Shown in pieces: positions 16,301 through 24,013 of a stretch of 64,000 nucleotides of DNA; within the stretch, counting starts at the first letter, position 1, and every line of letters begins with the position of its first letter. The position numbers were made by a program, and so were the translations under genes. Location: NCBI GenBank assembly GCA_048938105.1, contig JBHLMN010000001.1:352001-416000 (forward strand), in the 5' to 3' direction. The notes beneath the pieces were generated by a model. The model was not told where the DNA came from, made no database searches, and saw only the letters and a program-made list of their open reading frames with translations. The stretch comes from Promethearchaeota archaeon (lineage in GTDB: Archaea; Asgardarchaeota; Heimdallarchaeia; Hodarchaeales; Hodarchaeaceae).

Positions 16301-19300
16301 TTAGCCGCACTTAGAATAACCACAAACTCGACAAAGAATGCATCCTTCACTATGCTCTACAATATTCCCACATTCTGGACATTCTGGTCGTAAACCTGAA
16401 GTGGTATGAGATAGATAAATTGTATTTCCCCCAGAACTAAAATCATTTTCTTCGGTTTCCCTAACTTGAACACTCTCATTCTTATGATTATTAACGCTAT
16501 AGCGGTTTATGAAACGTTCTACAGCCTTAGCTACTGCATCAGCGCAAGACAATATTGGTCCTTCTGAACCAAATGTAGGAGAAGGGCAACGAATGGATTT
16601 AAGTTGCATGATGATTTCATCTGGTTCAATCCTACTTCGAAGCGCGAGTGAAATTAAACGACCCATTGATTCAATATGTGATGCAACACAACCCCCAGAT
16701 TTACCCAGTGACAAAAACAGTTCAGCTAATCCCTCCTCATCCTCATTGATAGTTATAAATAAGTTTGTTCCACAACCCACACGAACTCGTTCAGTGACTC
16801 CACGGGTAACATCTGGTCTATACCTAGGTTTCTTTGATGAAATAACCTTATCTGATTTGGTTTTTACTTCGTTGGTACCTTTCTTAGACAAAACATCATA
16901 AGAGCGAGAACCAGAACGGTATACTGTTAGCCCTTTACATCCCAATTTGTAAGCCAACATATAGGCATTATTAATATCAGCCACAGTTGCTTCCTTGGGA
17001 AAATTGATGGTATTATGGGACACGATACCGTTTACGAGGTACGTATGAGAATTCTTAACCTCAACATCAAATAGTGGAATATCTCCAATGTCTTCGATGG
17101 ATGTTACTTTCTCAACAGCAGCAATAATTCTAAGATTAAGAGATTTCGCTACAGTATTCCAACAGTACTCTCGTTTTGATTGTTTTAACCATCTTAAATT
17201 GCTATAATACTCGTCTGAAGTTGGAAGAGTTTTTTCTTGGACTTCATTGGGATCAATCAAGACAAAATATTTTTTATAATGTGGTGGCGACCTTTTATGT
17301 TCTTCAATTGGTGTTATTATACCTTGCAGTTCATTACTAATTTCAACATAATAATAAATACCATATCCTTTGACTTTTTTCTGGCCTTGGTATATATATG
17401 GGAGACCAAAACTTCTAAGTAATTCTGAAATCTGATAAGCTAATCGTTTAGACATACCCCCATATACAACTAATCCTCTATTTTTTTTAAGATAACCATC
17501 GAGTGTAACACCTTCTAAGAACGCTTTCTTTTCTTCGGCGCTACCCTCGAGTATTTGTTTCGGAACATGTTTATTTCTTGCTTTGACTCCAATTAAACTT
17601 CTGACAAATCGAACTAAAGCTCTTGATGTAATAACGTGAGAAATCACATTATTTCGTTTATCTTTTATAAGTCGGGGTTTTTCCTCAAAAATCTCCATTG
17701 AGAGAATATCAAAAAGATCCCCTACATTACTATTATTCTCAACAAGAGCTACTGCTCCAGTACTCTCTACCATAGATCCATCTGCAGCTAGCATTCCTAG
17801 CCAACGTGCGAGGAGTGCATCCATCTTCTTTGGTAATTGTACTATATTAGAACTAGTTTTAAATTCATGATTAAAATCAATCGTTTTTCCCCCTTCGGTG
17901 TGAATAGGTGGAGAATTGTGTCTGACAACTACTAGATCCCCCTTTTTTAGATTTGAAAGTGTTTTCCATCCACTAGAAGTCATAATGTTATGAGTAGTTT
18001 TTGCACCAATAATTTTAGATCCATTTCTAAGCATAATTTCAACAGAAGAATGTTTTCCTGCACTATAATGAGAAATAACCTTTTTTAATTGTCCTTCTTT
18101 ACCATCAATAACATACAAATCAGGTAATGGGCTATCGAATTCATCAACACCATTGGCAAATCCGCATTCTGCTACTGGAACTAAACCTTTGTTAGTTGGC
18201 AAAAGAGTATCTCCAGCTATACACTTACTCACAGCATTGTCCACTCCTGATGTTTGGAACGCTGCTTGCATTCGAACATGCCACTCTGGGGAGATATCGT
18301 GTGCTGTAACAAAGGTTTGACGTATTTCCTCAGGTATTTCTGCCATTTCTGCAATTGAACCTGTTGCTGCGATTTTTTCCATCAGGTCTTGCGAATAAAA
18401 ACCCTGGCTTTTTGCTATCTCAACGAAAAAAGGATACCCTTCCACTAAAATATCGTCATCTAAAACTCGCCGTTCATAAGTTAGCATAAATAATGGTTCG
18501 ATTCCACTTGAACAGCCTGCTATGATCGATATGGTACCAGTTGGAGCTATTGTAGTTAATGTGGCATTTCGCATCATTGGATACTTTTCAGCAAAAATAC
18601 TCTTGTTAAAATTAGGAAATGACCCCCGTTCTTGGGCAAGCTTCTGCGACTCACGAATAGCAATTGTACGAATGTAGCTCATTACACGTTTAGCCAATTC
18701 TATACCTTTTTCTGAATTATAGGGGATTCCAACTTTAATTAATAAATCCGCGAATCCCATAATTCCAAGACCTATTTTTCGGTTTCTTTTCGTCATTTCC
18801 TCAATTTCAGGCAAAGGAAAACTTGAAACATCAATTACATTGTCTAGAAATCGCACTGCTAAGGTTATAATCCGTTCAAGATGATCATAATCTATATGAT
18901 ATTTTAGTGGATCAATAGGATCCTTTTTAACCATCTTACTAAGATTTATAGAGCCTAGATTGCATGATTCGTACGCTAACAGAGGCTGTTCTCCGCAGTT
19001 CTGTGTTTTGACGAATTTGATCTTCGTCCTCTCTCCAACTTGTTCTCCAAACCCTCCAATGAAAAAACAATGAAATTCATCCACTGTACCGTTATAAACA
19101 TCCTCCTTTCCTAGATATTTAACGTTTACAACTTTATCATTATACATGGTTGAATGTTCTTTAAGCTCTCTATAATTTTTAAATCCAAATTTTGTTCCTA
19201 ATCTGAACGGGATAGAAGATTGTTTGCATGAGTTTTCCCATTCCTTTTTAAAAGGTTCTCTGTTTAACTTTTCTTTCAATTCAAGATAACATAGTATTTG

Positions 19301-22300
19301 TTTCATCCTTTTTTCTTCAGCAAGATTTTTGTATGTTTTTCTTACACCAAGAGTTCTTTTGATGATCATTTCTTTTTCCGAATTGAAATATTTCATGAAA
19401 CAATTTCTGTTACAATAGCTGATTTCTCTTTCGTTAAAACTGATATGAAATAGCTTCCCACAATGCTCACAAGTCTTTTCAACCATAACACTATTGCCAT
19501 TTAAAAAGCATTTGAGATCTGTCTTTTGTTGACATTTTTCTAGCTTTCTTAAGGCCCTCTGATGAAATCCTATCCGAGATTTTTTGATATATGTAGGATC
19601 CTTCCATTTTTCACGAGAGATCTTTGAGAGTAGGAGTCTTTGTTCTGGATTATTTTCATATGATTGTTTCCGTGATAAGCTTATTTTTCTCTTTGTTTCT
19701 TCTGAAACTTCAACACCATATCTTGGGTTATTTTTTCCAGCTGTGTGATAAAAAGGATTTTCTTCTAGGTACTTTTTCCACTTCCTAGGATCAGCTTTTA
19801 TTTGGAATATGGGATTCTTTCTCCCTTTCATGGATATACCGTGTAAAGCATCATGTTCATTAACATGCATTATCTGAAGGTTTTCTGGTGAATTATTTTC
19901 AGAATCAAAATCTATATGATGAACTATATGATCTTTAGGTATTGGATTATCATTATTATGAAAAAATTTTGCAATTAGTGTATGTTCTGATTTTTCAGAC
20001 CGACCTCGGTTATACATTCTCATGTATTTCTTGTGAGGATTAACGGAATATTTCCCTCTTTGATATTGTAGTACTTTTGTTAAGATATGTAAACTATCTC
20101 CAGATTGTAATTCATCTGTTCGTTTTATGGTTCCGTTCCTAAGATAAAATCTATGATTGGCTGTTGTTTTTAAAATCTCCCCAGAATCCAGAAGTACTTG
20201 GTATACAGGAACCTTTTTTCCTGTTAATCTTGGCCTTCTCATGATTCTAACTGTTATTTTTCCTTGATCATCTTCAGTAAATACAGGAACATCATTTCCT
20301 TCCTTAGCTAATTGTTTCATTGGAACAGCTGATCTACCATCAGCTGTTGCTATCAATGTATCCCCAGTTATACAAGGGTTTGTTGCTTCGATTTTAGCCA
20401 GATCGGGAGTTGGATTTGCAGCATTAATTCGATCTAGAAAAATTATTCCTGGTTCCCCGTTTTTATGGGCCATTTTTACAATTTCATCGAAAACAACTCT
20501 CGCCTTTAACCGAGTTACCTCTTCTGAATTACGAGGATTTACCAACGCATAATCTTTGTCATTGAGTACAGCTTCCATAAATTCCTCAGTAAGCCCAACA
20601 GAGATATTGAAATTATTTAAAGTGCTTAAGTCCTCCTTACAACGAATGAAGTCCATGATATCGGGATGATCAACTCTTAAAATCCCCATATTTGCCCCCC
20701 GACGCCTGTTATGAACGAGAATGCCATTTGCTACAAATTGATTTGAACCTGGAACTTCAATATCCATTGTATGCGATTTGGTCCATTTAAGACTCTTAAC
20801 TTGAGTAAAATAATATTTTGGATCAGAAATTTTAGTAAAATGCTCATTATTCCTGATAATATCGAATTTTTCTTGAAGAAAGCTCAGTCTTTTTCTTGTT
20901 AAATTTCTTCTATGGGATGGATCACCTATATAATGCTGAATGGCTCTATAGAACCTCCTATCAGCTCCTCTCTTTCCTCTTCCTTTACCTGATCCCCTCC
21001 CAACGTATGTGTAAAGTTGTTTTAGTTTTTCTCCTTGATTTGGAATTATATCATTATACTCAAATGCTTTTTCATGATACCTAGATCGAAATGTTTCTGT
21101 CTTCCTTTTTGATATGAACCCTATCTCCTCTTTAAATACTCTCAGACTTCTATCTGAGACTAATCTTAAGGTATAAATTGGTTTTTTCCCGTAGCTATTA
21201 TCTCTTTTCTGCCGTACACTATAGCTAGATACAATATTTAATCCAAGTAACAACTGTTGTGTCTGTTCTATCAATTTTTGAGATGTTGAGTAGAGTCTGG
21301 GATACCCGTTTGTATGTGTATTCCCATCTCCCTCGAATAACCCCCTTATGAACGATTTTGCTACTTCTGGACATGATTGAAATATTTCTCTTGGAATAAA
21401 AGCGTCAGTTGATGATTTCTTCTTCCACTTCATATTTTCAAAAAATCTGCTTAGATCGTAAGAATAGAAAATTATATCAGTCCAAGAAACGTTATCCTCC
21501 TTTCTTCCAATTTTCAAGCCGAAAGAAAAGAGCATTAAATCTTCAATTCGCTGTATTAAATCAAGATCTTTGTTATCAACGCTAAAAATCATTCTTCCCC
21601 CAGTACTCAAACAACCATCGGCCATATATAATCCTAAAGTTTCACCCAGCTCAGATGTCATCGTTTCTGGAATTTTAATAGGAGTAGCATTGAAATGTTG
21701 TTCATTAATTTTGGGTAGAGAGACCTCTTTGCCATTATGACCTCCTAATACAACAATTACCCAGTCTCCGGCCTGAATTTCATTAATGGTCTTCCACACT
21801 CTTTCCCCTTTTTGATCAATACAAGCGATCTGATGATTGCAGGTTGCCTCAAGATTTAACCCAATATCAGTTTTAAGTCGTAGAACTTCAGCTATACCAT
21901 TATCCATTGAAATTAAGGCATTGGAATACGAATCTCCATCATAAACGAGGTCTTTTGTAAAGTTCTCTCCCATTGGGGGACAATCAAGTAATTCACCAAT
22001 TTCGATTACTCCTTCAGGAGTTCGTATATGACTTTTTGTTGACACACATCCGCCTTGCTTAATGATCTCTGTGGCAGAATTAAAGACCGTCATGAAAGAA
22101 ACTGGCCCACTTGCCACACCACCTGTGGTTTGGACCTTATCATTAACAGGTCGTAAATGGGAAAAGGTAAAGCCAGTGTTATGAATGACAAATAATGGGC
22201 CTTTTCCTGCTAAATAATTATTTGTATTTTCCACTGTGAAGTCATAAAACTCTTCTACGTCACCAGATTCCACTGAAGTGACTCTTACTAAAGATGGAAT

Positions 22301-24013
22301 GATTCTGAGTAAATATTTCAGATATTCTTTGTCATTTTCACTTAACTGGTTTCTATAGAATCTTAAAAGCTCTGTGATTAACTCAATAACCTTTTTTCTA
22401 TTTATTAAATTCTTTTCTTTCCATCGCGCTAGAAAGAATCTTCTTTCTCCAACTACGACTGATTTTCTCCAAATTCTAGTAGATTTTGTATTAATTCCAA
22501 CTTTTTCAAGAATAGGTTGAAGAAAGATAAAATCAAGAGGACAGGAAATAGATGAATGAGTTTTTTCAAGATGTTTTTCCATTCTTTGTTTTTTATTTTT
22601 TGATTTCAAATAAGGAAAGATTAAATCTGCTAATGTCCTATAATCTTCAAACCCATTTATAATTATTTCAAAAATAACACTATTTTTCAATCGTTTATCT
22701 TTTCTAACGCGATAACGTGGTTTAATTCCAAATACCGATAATAAACACTTTAGATCTACAGAAAACTCCTTACTTCCAGTTGAAAATTCTATCTTCTTCT
22801 CAGATTTTCTGATGTGACCATCACCGTCAATTAATCCTGCTATGTAAGAACTAATGACCGAAATAGGTGATTTGAAAATAAGCTCAGGTATCCTGACAGA
22901 TTTTGATTTTTTACCTATAATATTGCGATTTAACTTTCTGATTGCTTCATTCATTTCTTGATCGTAAGATGTTACATATTTAACTACCTTTGATCTCTTT
23001 AATGATCTCTTGTCTATTTGGATTGAATATTTTCTTCCTGTGATTTTTTCTAATATATTCTGATAAGAGTTAAGTAAATTGTTGTCAGTTGTAAAGAAGC
23101 TAAGACGTAAACCCTTCCATCCTGTCTTACTGTTTGTAAAATTTCTTAATGAACCATCTGTCTGGAATAAACCTATTAAATAAGCGAAATCCTCATCGAT
23201 TTGATAATTTTGCATATATTTATACTCGTTAAAAGGCCATTTTTTAATAGAACTATTATTGGATGTAATTAAGAAATCTCCCCTTTGAATTTCATCCGCT
23301 CTTTTTTCAATAACCCTATTATTACTCCAAATAAAGAAAGGATGCCAATTACTTGAAATAATTTCATTTTTTCCCTCCGTAACAATTTTAATTGTGTCTT
23401 TTTTGTTTAATACATATTTCCATATTTTCATCACTGGTTTTAAGACTATCTCCCCAGTACTTTTATCAAAGGAAAATGTTTGAATGTTTTCATCGGAAAT
23501 ATTCAAAATCCTTGCATTTCCTTGCTCTAAAACCTCTTTTTTATTAGAAAAAAAATCATAGATAGTATCAATTGCTTCAATACCACAGAATGTGGAATAG
23601 ACTCTAGTACCCCTTGCTATACACCCTCCACCTGATTTATGGATAATTGCTGCGTTCTTAATTGCTTGAAATATAGAATCCATATCATCGCGAATAGGTA
23701 AAACAAAGCAAGCAGATAATTGATTTAGCTCTGTTCCAGCATTCATCAATGTGGGTGAATTTGGTAAAAACTCTAGATTTACCATCATATCATAGAATTT
23801 ATCTTCATAAAAAGCTGGATTACCACCGTACCGTGTTTCATTCGCCGCAATAGCCTTAGCAACACGTTTAAACAGTTGATCAGGTGTTTCAATAACCTCT
23901 CCACGTTCATTTTGCCTCAAGTATCGTTTCTCAAGTACAATTTTTGCATTTGGTGTGAGTCTTGGCAGTTTTGTTTTCATGGACTTCTCTGGTTTTTCTG
24001 ATTTGATAGTCAT
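16301..24013 (-). CDS. nrdJ: class II (adenosylcobalamin-dependent) ribonucleotide reductase with four inteins; spliced product about 778 aa
   Basis: PNSPTLMNAG, QLSACFV, reconstructed KQGG|RRRGANMG, ATNP|CGEQPL, ESCNLGSINL, TIAPTGTIS, AVSK|TINFP, C-terminal TSCPD-like domain and Zn ribbon. Confidence 0.95.
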   Translation of the reverse strand: MTIKSEKPEKSMKTKLPRLTPNAKIVLEKRYLRQNERGEVIETPDQLFKRVAKAIAANETRYGGNPAFYEDKFYDMMVNLEFLPNSPTLMNAGTELNQLSACFVLPIRDDMDSIFQAIKNAAIIHKSGGGCIARGTRVYSTFCGIEAIDTIYDFFSNKKEVLEQGNARILNISDENIQTFSFDKSTGEIVLKPVMKIWKYVLNKKDTIKIVTEGKNEIISSNWHPFFIWSNNRVIEKRADEIQRGDFLITSNNSSIKKWPFNEYKYMQNYQIDEDFAYLIGLFQTDGSLRNFTNSKTGWKGLRLSFFTTDNNLLNSYQNILEKITGRKYSIQIDKRSLKRSKVVKYVTSYDQEMNEAIRKLNRNIIGKKSKSVRIPELIFKSPISVISSYIAGLIDGDGHIRKSEKKIEFSTGSKEFSVDLKCLLSVFGIKPRYRVRKDKRLKNSVIFEIIINGFEDYRTLADLIFPYLKSKNKKQRMEKHLEKTHSSISCPLDFIFLQPILEKVGINTKSTRIWRKSVVVGERRFFLARWKEKNLINRKKVIELITELLRFYRNQLSENDKEYLKYLLRIIPSLVRVTSVESGDVEEFYDFTVENTNNYLAGKGPLFVIHNTGFTFSHLRPVNDKVQTTGGVASGPVSFMTVFNSATEIIKQGGCVSTKSHIRTPEGVIEIGELLDCPPMGENFTKDLVYDGDSYSNALISMDNGIAEVLRLKTDIGLNLEATCNHQIACIDQKGERVWKTINEIQAGDWVIVVLGGHNGKEVSLPKINEQHFNATPIKIPETMTSELGETLGLYMADGCLSTGGRMIFSVDNKDLDLIQRIEDLMLFSFGLKIGRKEDNVSWTDIIFYSYDLSRFFENMKWKKKSSTDAFIPREIFQSCPEVAKSFIRGLFEGDGNTHTNGYPRLYSTSQKLIEQTQQLLLGLNIVSSYSVRQKRDNSYGKKPIYTLRLVSDRSLRVFKEEIGFISKRKTETFRSRYHEKAFEYNDIIPNQGEKLKQLYTYVGRGSGKGRGKRGADRRFYRAIQHYIGDPSHRRNLTRKRLSFLQEKFDIIRNNEHFTKISDPKYYFTQVKSLKWTKSHTMDIEVPGSNQFVANGILVHNRRRGANMGILRVDHPDIMDFIRCKEDLSTLNNFNISVGLTEEFMEAVLNDKDYALVNPRNSEEVTRLKARVVFDEIVKMAHKNGEPGIIFLDRINAANPTPDLAKIEATNPCITGDTLIATADGRSAVPMKQLAKEGNDVPVFTEDDQGKITVRIMRRPRLTGKKVPVYQVLLDSGEILKTTANHRFYLRNGTIKRTDELQSGDSLHILTKVLQYQRGKYSVNPHKKYMRMYNRGRSEKSEHTLIAKFFHNNDNPIPKDHIVHHIDFDSENNSPENLQIMHVNEHDALHGISMKGRKNPIFQIKADPRKWKKYLEENPFYHTAGKNNPRYGVEVSEETKRKISLSRKQSYENNPEQRLLLSKISREKWKDPTYIKKSRIGFHQRALRKLEKCQQKTDLKCFLNGNSVMVEKTCEHCGKLFHISFNEREISYCNRNCFMKYFNSEKEMIIKRTLGVRKTYKNLAEEKRMKQILCYLELKEKLNREPFKKEWENSCKQSSIPFRLGTKFGFKNYRELKEHSTMYNDKVVNVKYLGKEDVYNGTVDEFHCFFIGGFGEQVGERTKIKFVKTQNCGEQPLLAYESCNLGSINLSKMVKKDPIDPLKYHIDYDHLERIITLAVRFLDNVIDVSSFPLPEIEEMTKRNRKIGLGIMGFADLLIKVGIPYNSEKGIELAKRVMSYIRTIAIRESQKLAQERGSFPNFNKSIFAEKYPMMRNATLTTIAPTGTISIIAGCSSGIEPLFMLTYERRVLDDDILVEGYPFFVEIAKSQGFYSQDLMEKIAATGSIAEMAEIPEEIRQTFVTAHDISPEWHVRMQAAFQTSGVDNAVSKCIAGDTLLPTNKGLVPVAECGFANGVDEFDSPLPDLYVIDGKEGQLKKVISHYSAGKHSSVEIMLRNGSKIIGAKTTHNIMTSSGWKTLSNLKKGDLVVVRHNSPPIHTEGGKTIDFNHEFKTSSNIVQLPKKMDALLARWLGMLAADGSMVESTGAVALVENNSNVGDLFDILSMEIFEEKPRLIKDKRNNVISHVITSRALVRFVRSLIGVKARNKHVPKQILEGSAEEKKAFLEGVTLDGYLKKNRGLVVYGGMSKRLAYQISELLRSFGLPYIYQGQKKVKGYGIYYYVEISNELQGIITPIEEHKRSPPHYKKYFVLIDPNEVQEKTLPTSDEYYSNLRWLKQSKREYCWNTVAKSLNLRIIAAVEKVTSIEDIGDIPLFDVEVKNSHTYLVNGIVSHNTINFPKEATVADINNAYMLAYKLGCKGLTVYRSGSRSYDVLSKKGTNEVKTKSDKVISSKKPRYRPDVTRGVTERVRVGCGTNLFITINEDEEGLAELFLSLGKSGGCVASHIESMGRLISLALRSRIEPDEIIMQLKSIRCPSPTFGSEGPILSCADAVAKAVERFINRYSVNNHKNESVQVRETEENDFSSGGNTIYLSHTTSGLRPECPECGNIVEHSEGCILCRVCGYSKCG
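17012..18223 (-). mobile_element. intein 4 (404 aa, LAGLIDADG)
   Basis: AVSK|CIAGDT ... IVSHN|TINFP; LGMLAADG and LEGVTLDG motifs. Confidence 0.92.
18998..20374 (-). mobile_element. intein 3 (459 aa, HNH endonuclease) inserted before the thiyl-radical Cys
   Basis: ATNP|CITGDT ... KTQN|CGEQ; VHHIDFDSENNSPENL HNH motif; NUMOD3-like SEETKRKIS; CEHC..YC...C. Confidence 0.92.
20708..22048 (-). mobile_element. intein 2 (447 aa, LAGLIDADG), Arg at +1
   Basis: KQGG|CVSTKS ... ILVHN|RRRGA; block B TCNH; LGLYMADG and IRGLFEGDG motifs. Confidence 0.92.
22178..23623 (-). mobile_element. intein 1 (482 aa, LAGLIDADG homing endonuclease)
   Basis: SGGG|CIARGT ... VIHN|TGF; IGLFQTDG and IAGLIDGDG motifs. 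Confidence 0.93.

Follow-up and report, generated by a model that had tools for sequence, protein, structure and literature searches.

How does an intein leave its host protein when the residue that follows it offers no side-chain nucleophile? The question is raised by a ribonucleotide reductase (RNR) gene in a stretch of 64,000 nucleotides from a Promethearchaeota archaeon, an Asgard archaeon of Hodarchaeales type (assembly GCA_048938105.1, contig JBHLMN010000001.1, positions 352,001 to 416,000; hereafter the window). The gene carries four inteins, and the second of them (intein 2) is directly followed by an arginine. In the four-step class 1 splicing pathway, the first residue of the C-extein (position +1) is a cysteine, a serine or a threonine which forms the branched intermediate. 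To our knowledge, the schemes given in textbooks and reviews for splicing classes 1 to 3 all require one of these three residues. In the full-text literature that we searched (subscription-only papers were outside its scope), no natural intein lacking a +1 nucleophile is described other than the bacterial intein-like (BIL) domains. Intein 2 is a member of a large lineage of true inteins, natural and mobile, which breaks the +1 rule. The lineage resides in an essential enzyme of many archaeal phyla and of some viruses; its hosts include Asgard archaea and one cultivated DPANN archaeon. The RNR is probably matured in a manner not yet described.

As far as its sequence tells, intein 2 is an intein by descent and architecture, and its splicing is predicted. 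It lies in frame at a conserved site of a conserved host protein, orthologues lack it, and once it is precisely taken out the host sequence is regained. At the N junction the sequence is ...IIKQGG^CVSTKS, at the C junction ...NGILVHN^RRRGANMG (a caret marks junctions throughout). An initial annotation, made from the letters alone, had placed the junctions at KQGG^CVST...ILVHN^RRRGANMG with the +1 codon AGG at 20705-20707, and had listed Cys1, a TxxH motif in block B, the terminal HN and two LAGLIDADG motifs. The minus-strand translation confirms the junctions and the codon, and every one of the listed features is present (Table 1). Since the flanking residues differ at each junction (Gly and Cys on one side, Asn and Arg on the other), the C...N insertion is unambiguous when compared with intein-free alleles, and shifted boundaries are ruled out. 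A nucleophile further downstream can be dismissed as well, as none is found in RRGANMG and the C-extein positions +1 to +8 (Arg followed by RRGANMG) thus contain no Cys, Ser or Thr. The N-terminal Cys, TxxH, the block F Thr and Asp and the C-terminal His-Asn are all in place, with the canonical block F His gone. Intein 2 has an Arg where class 1 inteins have Cys, Ser or Thr. Nor does it carry the class 3 signature, in which the N-terminal nucleophile is missing and Trp (block B), Cys (block F:4) and Thr (block G) are found: intein 2 has Cys1, an Asp/Glu at position 4 of block F and a Val ahead of His-Asn.

The fold is that of a HINT domain with a nested endonuclease domain, according to an AlphaFold2 (AF2) model (pLDDT 88.6), its Foldseek matches to solved inteins and the Pfam family PF14890. 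The endonuclease domain has two LAGLIDADG motifs with acidic residues and an I-DmoI-like fold. Compared with solved endonuclease-bearing inteins, the AF2 model gives Foldseek E-values of 3e-28 to 7e-21 and TM scores up to 0.75, the best matches being 7qss and 1dq3. At the sequence level the E-values against solved inteins are 1e-10 (single-sequence phmmer) and 4e-28 (hmmsearch with the A2 profile). The solved TliVMA and PhoVMA inteins (7qss, 7qsu, 7qst) and PI-PfuI of the Pyrococcus furiosus RNR (1dq3) share the overall fold of the model, but they are only about 17-20% identical and occupy other insertion sites.

The host protein is assigned to the class II, NrdJ-like RNRs on the basis of its sequence. 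It possesses the barrel and N-terminal domains and the loop-2 KQGGxRRGA motif, its closest solved relative is the B12-dependent NrdJ of Thermotoga maritima (1xje), and its homologues are named adenosylcobalamin-dependent RNR by NCBI. Pfam recognizes the N-terminal and barrel domains, TSCPD, four Intein_splicing stretches and LAGLIDADG/HNH endonuclease domains in the open reading frame. When all the inteins are conceptually removed, a 778-residue RNR results which can be aligned gap-free with a congener RNR (86% identity) over the first three junctions. In the alignment to T. maritima NrdJ, intein 2 is inserted between the equivalents of S205 and R206, within a KQG[G/S]-RRRGA stretch known as specificity loop 2 of that enzyme. 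The initial annotation had stated that excision restores a normal loop 2, which agrees with both the gap-free alignment of the spliced product and the intein-free relatives, where the loop reads KQGG[R/K]RRGANMG (16 genomes; sequence at the site KQGGRRRGANMG).

An arginine at +1 could be the product of a single misread base, and the initial annotation had cautioned that AGG is one base away from ACG or AGY. This caveat does not hold. The same intein occupies the same site in 7 of 40 related genomes from the Hodarchaeota/Heimdallarchaeota group of Asgard archaea, with 61-87% identity, and is followed each time by RRRGANMG. The +1 Arg is encoded there by CGA, CGG, CGC or CGT (CGT four times), which together with AGG of the window makes eight genomes. 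Furthermore, contigs from a second sample of that study (X2), from an independent mangrove study (X3) and from run X7 match the window at 20705-20707 with zero differences. These synonymous codons and agreeing independent contigs rule out a sequencing error or a one-base slip. In the genome of the window (G000), nine of the ten intein C termini found with PF14890 have Thr or Ser at +1, and Arg occurs at intein 2 only. The samples of X3 and X7 (window 20689-22059) also hold intein-free QGGRRRGA alleles of close relatives, which are potential homing targets beside the carriers.

The phenomenon extends far beyond this group. We pooled three sources: a one-genome-per-species scan, 5.8 billion proteins searched through a word index, and 1.84 billion cluster representatives searched exhaustively with a profile. 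In total, 198 RNRs carry an intein at QGG^xRRGA, corresponding to 171 unique inteins. At +1, 127 of them have a residue without side-chain nucleophile by the class 1 rule (Lys in 103, Arg in 15, Ile in six, Met in two and Val in one), while Thr is found in 26 and Ser in 18. The control was provided by inteins at other sites of the same data set, with Thr, Ser or Cys at +1 in 151 of 152 unique C junctions; the lone exception turned out to be again the loop-2 site. The pattern at loop 2 thus exceeds what chance would give. The initial annotation had suggested that +1 residues be tabulated at QGG^xRRG; Arg and Lys do recur there, along with Ile, Met and Val, in many independent genomes. The named hosts comprise Asgard archaea of the Heimdall and Thor groups, Thermoplasmata, Micrarchaeota, Aenigmarchaeota, Woesearchaeota, Bathyarchaeia, Methanoperedens and Hydrothermarchaeales. 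The lineage is inserted directly before the native residue of the host, which is Arg here and Lys, Ile, Met or Val elsewhere, and about 180 diverse copies all have an exact junction, free of tails and indels. Ten halophile-like proteins (+1 Val, Ile, Arg or Lys) and four viral contigs from IMG/VR (+1 Lys) were added later. The former (P0188, P0306-P0314) form a subfamily of acidic proteins within the same clade, with the C-extein xR[S/R]GAQMAIMH. On the viral contigs (L078-L081), the RNR contains a clade member with the junctions KSGG^C...ILVHN^KRRGA, and viruses are possible vehicles for the spread between archaeal phyla.

Maximum-likelihood trees were computed from representatives clustered at 80% identity. 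All 69 representatives without a nucleophile fall into one group of 70 (SH-aLRT 96), which is sister to 15 canonical inteins with Thr or Ser at +1; further canonical groups lie outside. Two changes suffice to explain the +1 trait on the tree. The second of these concerns a nested cluster (P0164) whose junction is located one residue upstream and reads KQG^C...LLVHN^SFRRGA, an apparent secondary regain of a nucleophile as Ser+1. Its members P0302-P0305 come from Logan assemblies. Placed within RNR inteins, the lineage of intein 2 is single and old, and it would descend from canonical class 1 loop-2 inteins by loss of the +1 Cys, Ser or Thr. We infer the direction of this change, from class 1 to the state without a +1 nucleophile, from trees that are unrooted and come from a fast search under a simple model.

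Which residues has the lineage retained? Among 57 clade representatives, C1, T69, H446 and N447 are each present in all 57, H72 in 55 and N71 in 54, and Thr427 and Asp/Glu429 are nearly invariant. Compared with the canonical sister group and the outgroups, the clade has Leu-Val before His-Asn instead of Val-Ser/Thr and has lost the block F His/Asn-Thr pair. Block B contains Tyr70-Asn71 and Ala75, and the basic residues which follow the block B His in canonical relatives are missing. Arg9 has been gained, and Glu/Asp28 stands where canonical relatives have Trp. According to a recent engineering study (PMC12245125), the residue that precedes His-Asn determines both the C-terminal tripeptide geometry and how far the tripeptide lies from the block F Asp; the switch from Ser/Thr to Val at this position is thus mechanistically suggestive, but no more than that. 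An LL[D/N]CPP motif with Cys23 (window 21980-21982, minus strand) occurs in 37 of the 57 representatives; it is invariant in the copies of the Heimdall group, and canonical relatives do not have it. Cys23 might conceivably have a redox or relay function. With 37 of 57, the motif is ruled out as a universal, clade-defining catalytic feature.

The conservation is matched by signs of selection and of mobility. Pairwise dN/dS (nonsynonymous over synonymous rates) is 0.06-0.3 in the N-terminal splicing part, in the endonuclease part (0.06-0.19 there) and, mostly, in the C-terminal part, values which place the lineage under purifying selection. In comparisons of the three closest congeners, synonymous differences make up a proportion (pS) of 0.33-0.41 in the intein and of 0.63-0.77 in the flanking exteins (z 5.5-8.5). 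Because the intein pS is about half that of the exteins, the intein is younger than the divergence of its hosts and has entered the Arg alleles recently. This indicates recent homing into Arg alleles, and the endonuclease is predicted to be active in homing. Of 20 congeners, only 5 possess intein 2, and alleles lacking it come from the same samples. Congener RNR frames measure 787-789 residues without an intein, 1236 with intein 2 alone and 2570 with four inteins (G000), which shows that intein gain and loss in the RNR gene of these genus-level relatives (G001-G020) is very fast. A Thermoplasmata orthologue with a single intein (P0078) measures 1237 residues. The copy of Heimdallarchaeum endolithica (L014/L050) is shortened to 381 residues by a deletion of 67 endonuclease residues and keeps all the splicing blocks and the Arg+1 junction.

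The hosts appear to have no other RNR to rely on. In G000 (99% complete and 7% contaminated by marker genes), PF02867 matches one locus only, and class III RNR (NrdD) is absent. No second RNR, sought as PF02867 or PF13597, was found in G000, in five intein-carrying relatives or in Nanobdellota archaeon YN1. The sole RNR therefore carries the lineage of intein 2 in six free-living Asgard genomes (G000 and the five relatives), two of which are closed. YN1, a cultivated DPANN archaeon (genome AP031373) grown in co-culture with Sulfurisphaera, has a clade member in its only RNR (L082:1001-5950), with the junctions KQGG^C...FLIHN^KRRGANMG. This copy is atypical: block B reads TYDE, the His being replaced by Glu, and LAGLIDADG motif 1 is degenerate and has no acidic residue. 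Downstream, the same RNR contains another intein, a canonical one (NP^C...SHN^C). YN1 is an ectosymbiont lacking nucleotide biosynthesis (PMC11420986); it may import nucleotides and might not depend on its RNR.

The residues conserved in the clade are those needed to build the N-junction thioester and to cleave the C junction by Asn cyclisation. Since positions +1 to +8 contain no Cys, Ser or Thr, and Ile, Met and Val are found at +1, the only nucleophile that the C-extein could offer is its α-amine, once Asn cyclisation has occurred. A Lys or Arg side chain was considered in this role and is excluded because Ile, Met and Val occupy +1 elsewhere in the clade. A three-step route can then be proposed. 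Cys1 would undergo an N-S acyl shift, giving a thioester at Gly(-1). The terminal Asn would cyclise without a prior branched intermediate and free the α-amine of Arg+1. This amine would attack the unhindered Gly thioester and create a native Gly-Arg peptide bond, while the intein pocket and the RNR barrel, which contains both exteins, would hold the amine beside the thioester. The absence of hindrance at Gly may favour such a course, as may a lowered pKa of the new N terminus, which would be located in a basic cluster. The membership of both exteins in one barrel may be a further help, as it would keep them together after C-terminal cleavage. Type A BIL domains with Cys1, His-Asn and no +1 nucleophile can splice via aminolysis (review PMC4031507, citing Dassa 2004 and Aranko 2013). 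Among the explanations considered, we favour thioester formation, Asn cyclisation and aminolysis in the manner of type A BIL domains as the candidate route for intein 2, although the scales are evenly poised as to whether it is right. By analogy, we are equally divided over whether a true intein, housed in an essential enzyme, has adopted a BIL-type route by convergence.

Several observations weigh against this aminolysis route. In type A BIL domains, cleavage products outweigh the spliced product, and one BIL domain spliced only once its Tyr+1 had been changed to Cys (PMC4031507). As these domains mostly cleave, aminolysis may be too inefficient for the sole RNR of a cell. The loss of the block F His, which is conserved in canonical inteins, could equally reflect an altered or weakened C-terminal chemistry. 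The regain of Ser+1 in P0164 is a hint that a nucleophile, where one is at hand, brings an advantage, and the YN1 copy dispenses with the block B His. Finally, repeated homing alone could keep the junctions exact.

The initial annotation had opposed non-canonical splicing to mere cleavage which leaves a split RNR, and the present data support this choice as the right frame. If cleavage were the only outcome, thioester hydrolysis and Asn cyclisation would release the intein, and the RNR would be a non-covalent two-piece enzyme with a nick between Gly and Arg in loop 2. Both cleavages would use the same conserved Cys1, block B and His-Asn, and BIL-type domains without a +1 nucleophile mostly do cleave (PMC4031507). 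The two fragments share one interleaved barrel and would probably remain associated. Phage Aeh1 provides a precedent, since its NrdA large subunit is interrupted by a mobile element and NrdA-a/NrdA-b is a fully active RNR made of two polypeptides (PMC3045599). However, Aeh1 NrdA belongs to class Ia, contains no intein, is split elsewhere by a free-standing endonuclease gene and needs evolved tail peptides (PMC3045599), of which our alignment of loop-2 copies contains none. The nick would fall in the specificity loop, whose T. maritima equivalents are K202-R208. No gene fission was seen at the loop-2 site, although no systematic search for fissions was made. On balance we consider exclusive cleavage unlikely, albeit the main rival of the aminolysis route.

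A quite improbable explanation is that another chemistry or a helper is at work, such as an acyl relay via His446 or the semi-conserved Cys23 that would precede transfer to the freed amine, or a host factor that helps in ligation or excision. Two alternative routes, those of classes 2 and 3, have already arisen among inteins (PMC2807308, PMC4031507), and the clade displays substitutions with no assigned role (Arg9, Glu/Asp28 for Trp, Tyr70-Asn71, Ala75) in addition to LL[DN]CPP with Cys23 in part of the representatives. Cys23 is not universal, however, and a dedicated host factor is unlikely because hosts are found in many archaeal phyla as well as among some viruses; a conserved neighbouring gene was neither noticed nor looked for. 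It is very improbable that the intein is never removed, be it because the RNR works with a 447-residue insert in loop 2, because the allele is dead or because the assembly is wrong. Nothing specific speaks for this case, apart from YN1, which as an ectosymbiont without nucleotide biosynthesis might not need its RNR (PMC11420986). Assembly error is at odds with the synonymous Arg codons across genomes and the agreeing independent contigs. The dead allele, which the initial annotation had named as the outcome that would defeat its claim, is contradicted by the purifying selection on intein and exteins, by the recent mobility and by the status of sole RNR in six free-living Asgard genomes. In addition, residues needed only for the junction chemistry are invariant, and the endonuclease-deleted copy in G037 retains every splicing block.

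The aminolysis route invites a comparison with the systems that intein 2 resembles. Type A BIL domains, for instance that of Clostridium thermocellum, share with it the HINT domain, the N-terminal Cys, the C-terminal His-Asn and the missing +1 nucleophile (PMC4031507), so that the catalytic residues are those of a type A BIL. In contrast, BIL domains are bacterial, have no homing endonuclease, reside in variable non-essential proteins and mostly cleave, whereas the lineage of intein 2 is archaeal and viral, bears a LAGLIDADG endonuclease under selection and occupies one exact site of an essential enzyme. Because the lineage is nested in canonical RNR inteins and carries a selected endonuclease, its likeness to BIL domains reflects convergence and not membership. 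No BIL structure matched intein 2 in PDB sequence searches.

The canonical loop-2 inteins are closer relatives. Both the sister clade (P0161, P0095, P0099) and the more distant P0194 and P0199 share the QGG^xRRGA site, the architecture and the length with the lineage, at 35-41% identity, and likewise have Cys1, TxxH, the block F Thr/Asp and the terminal His-Asn. They differ by Thr or Ser at +1, by an end in Val-Ser/Thr-His-Asn, by the block F His/Asn-Thr and by basic residues that follow the His of block B. The intein lineages without an N-terminal nucleophile offer a parallel, as they are monophyletic, have lost one canonical nucleophile and show retuned neighbouring blocks. Nevertheless, they still need Cys, Ser or Thr at +1, which is the very nucleophile that the lineage of intein 2 lacks.

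What would follow if the aminolysis route were confirmed? We are tempted by, but stop slightly short of favouring, the view that the lineage represents a fourth mechanistic class of inteins: monophyletic, ancient, homing in archaea and viruses, and splicing via attack of the α-amine on a Gly thioester efficiently enough to serve a sole RNR. Traceless splicing beside Lys, Arg, Ile, Met or Val would then exist in nature and could be harnessed. At present the +1 requirement limits intein biotechnology because a scar residue is left. Loop 2 of the RNR would be a site where extein folding assists the ligation. If instead the enzyme is nicked, an RNR would routinely work with a nick in its specificity loop. 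Either outcome would be new, namely a mechanistic class with a possible scarless ligation route or a nicked RNR.

Table 1. Features of the RNR gene and of intein 2 in the window (window coordinates; intein 2 and its motifs are listed first)
Feature	Position	Strand	Description
Intein 2	20708-22048	minus	447 aa; protein residues 656-1102; KQGG^C...LVHN^R; HINT splicing domain and LAGLIDADG endonuclease
Cys1 codon of intein 2	22046-22048	minus	TGT
Block B	21833-21844	minus	TCNH, intein residues 69-72
LAGLIDADG motif 1	21608-21637	minus	LGLYMADGCL; Pfam LAGLIDADG_3
LAGLIDADG motif 2	21317-21352	minus	FIRGLFEGDGNT; Pfam LAGLIDADG_3, best stretch 884-965
Block F core	20753-20773	minus	HTMDIEV; Thr427 and Asp429 kept; downstream His of canonical relatives missing
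Terminal His-Asn	His 20711-20713; Asn 20708-20710	minus	CAT and AAC; preceded by Leu-Val, versus canonical Val-Ser/Thr
+1 codon	20705-20707	minus	AGG, Arg; first C-extein residue, without side-chain nucleophile
RNR open reading frame	16301-24013	minus	Class II (adenosylcobalamin-type, NrdJ-like), 2570 aa, four inteins; stop-free translation; PF02867, PF00317, TSCPD
Intein 1	22178-23623	minus	482 aa; protein residues 131-612; GGG^C...VIHN^T; canonical Thr+1
Intein 3	18998-20374	minus	459 aa; protein residues 1214-1672; ATNP^C...KTQN^C; HNH/NUMOD3-type; canonical Cys+1
Intein 4	17012-18223	minus	404 aa; protein residues 1931-2334; AVSK^C...VSHN^T; canonical Thr+1

The three other inteins of the gene all have a canonical +1 residue (Table 1). 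Intein 3 contains several Cys-x-x-Cys pairs and ends in Gln-Asn, with a penultimate Gln instead of His, ahead of its Cys+1.

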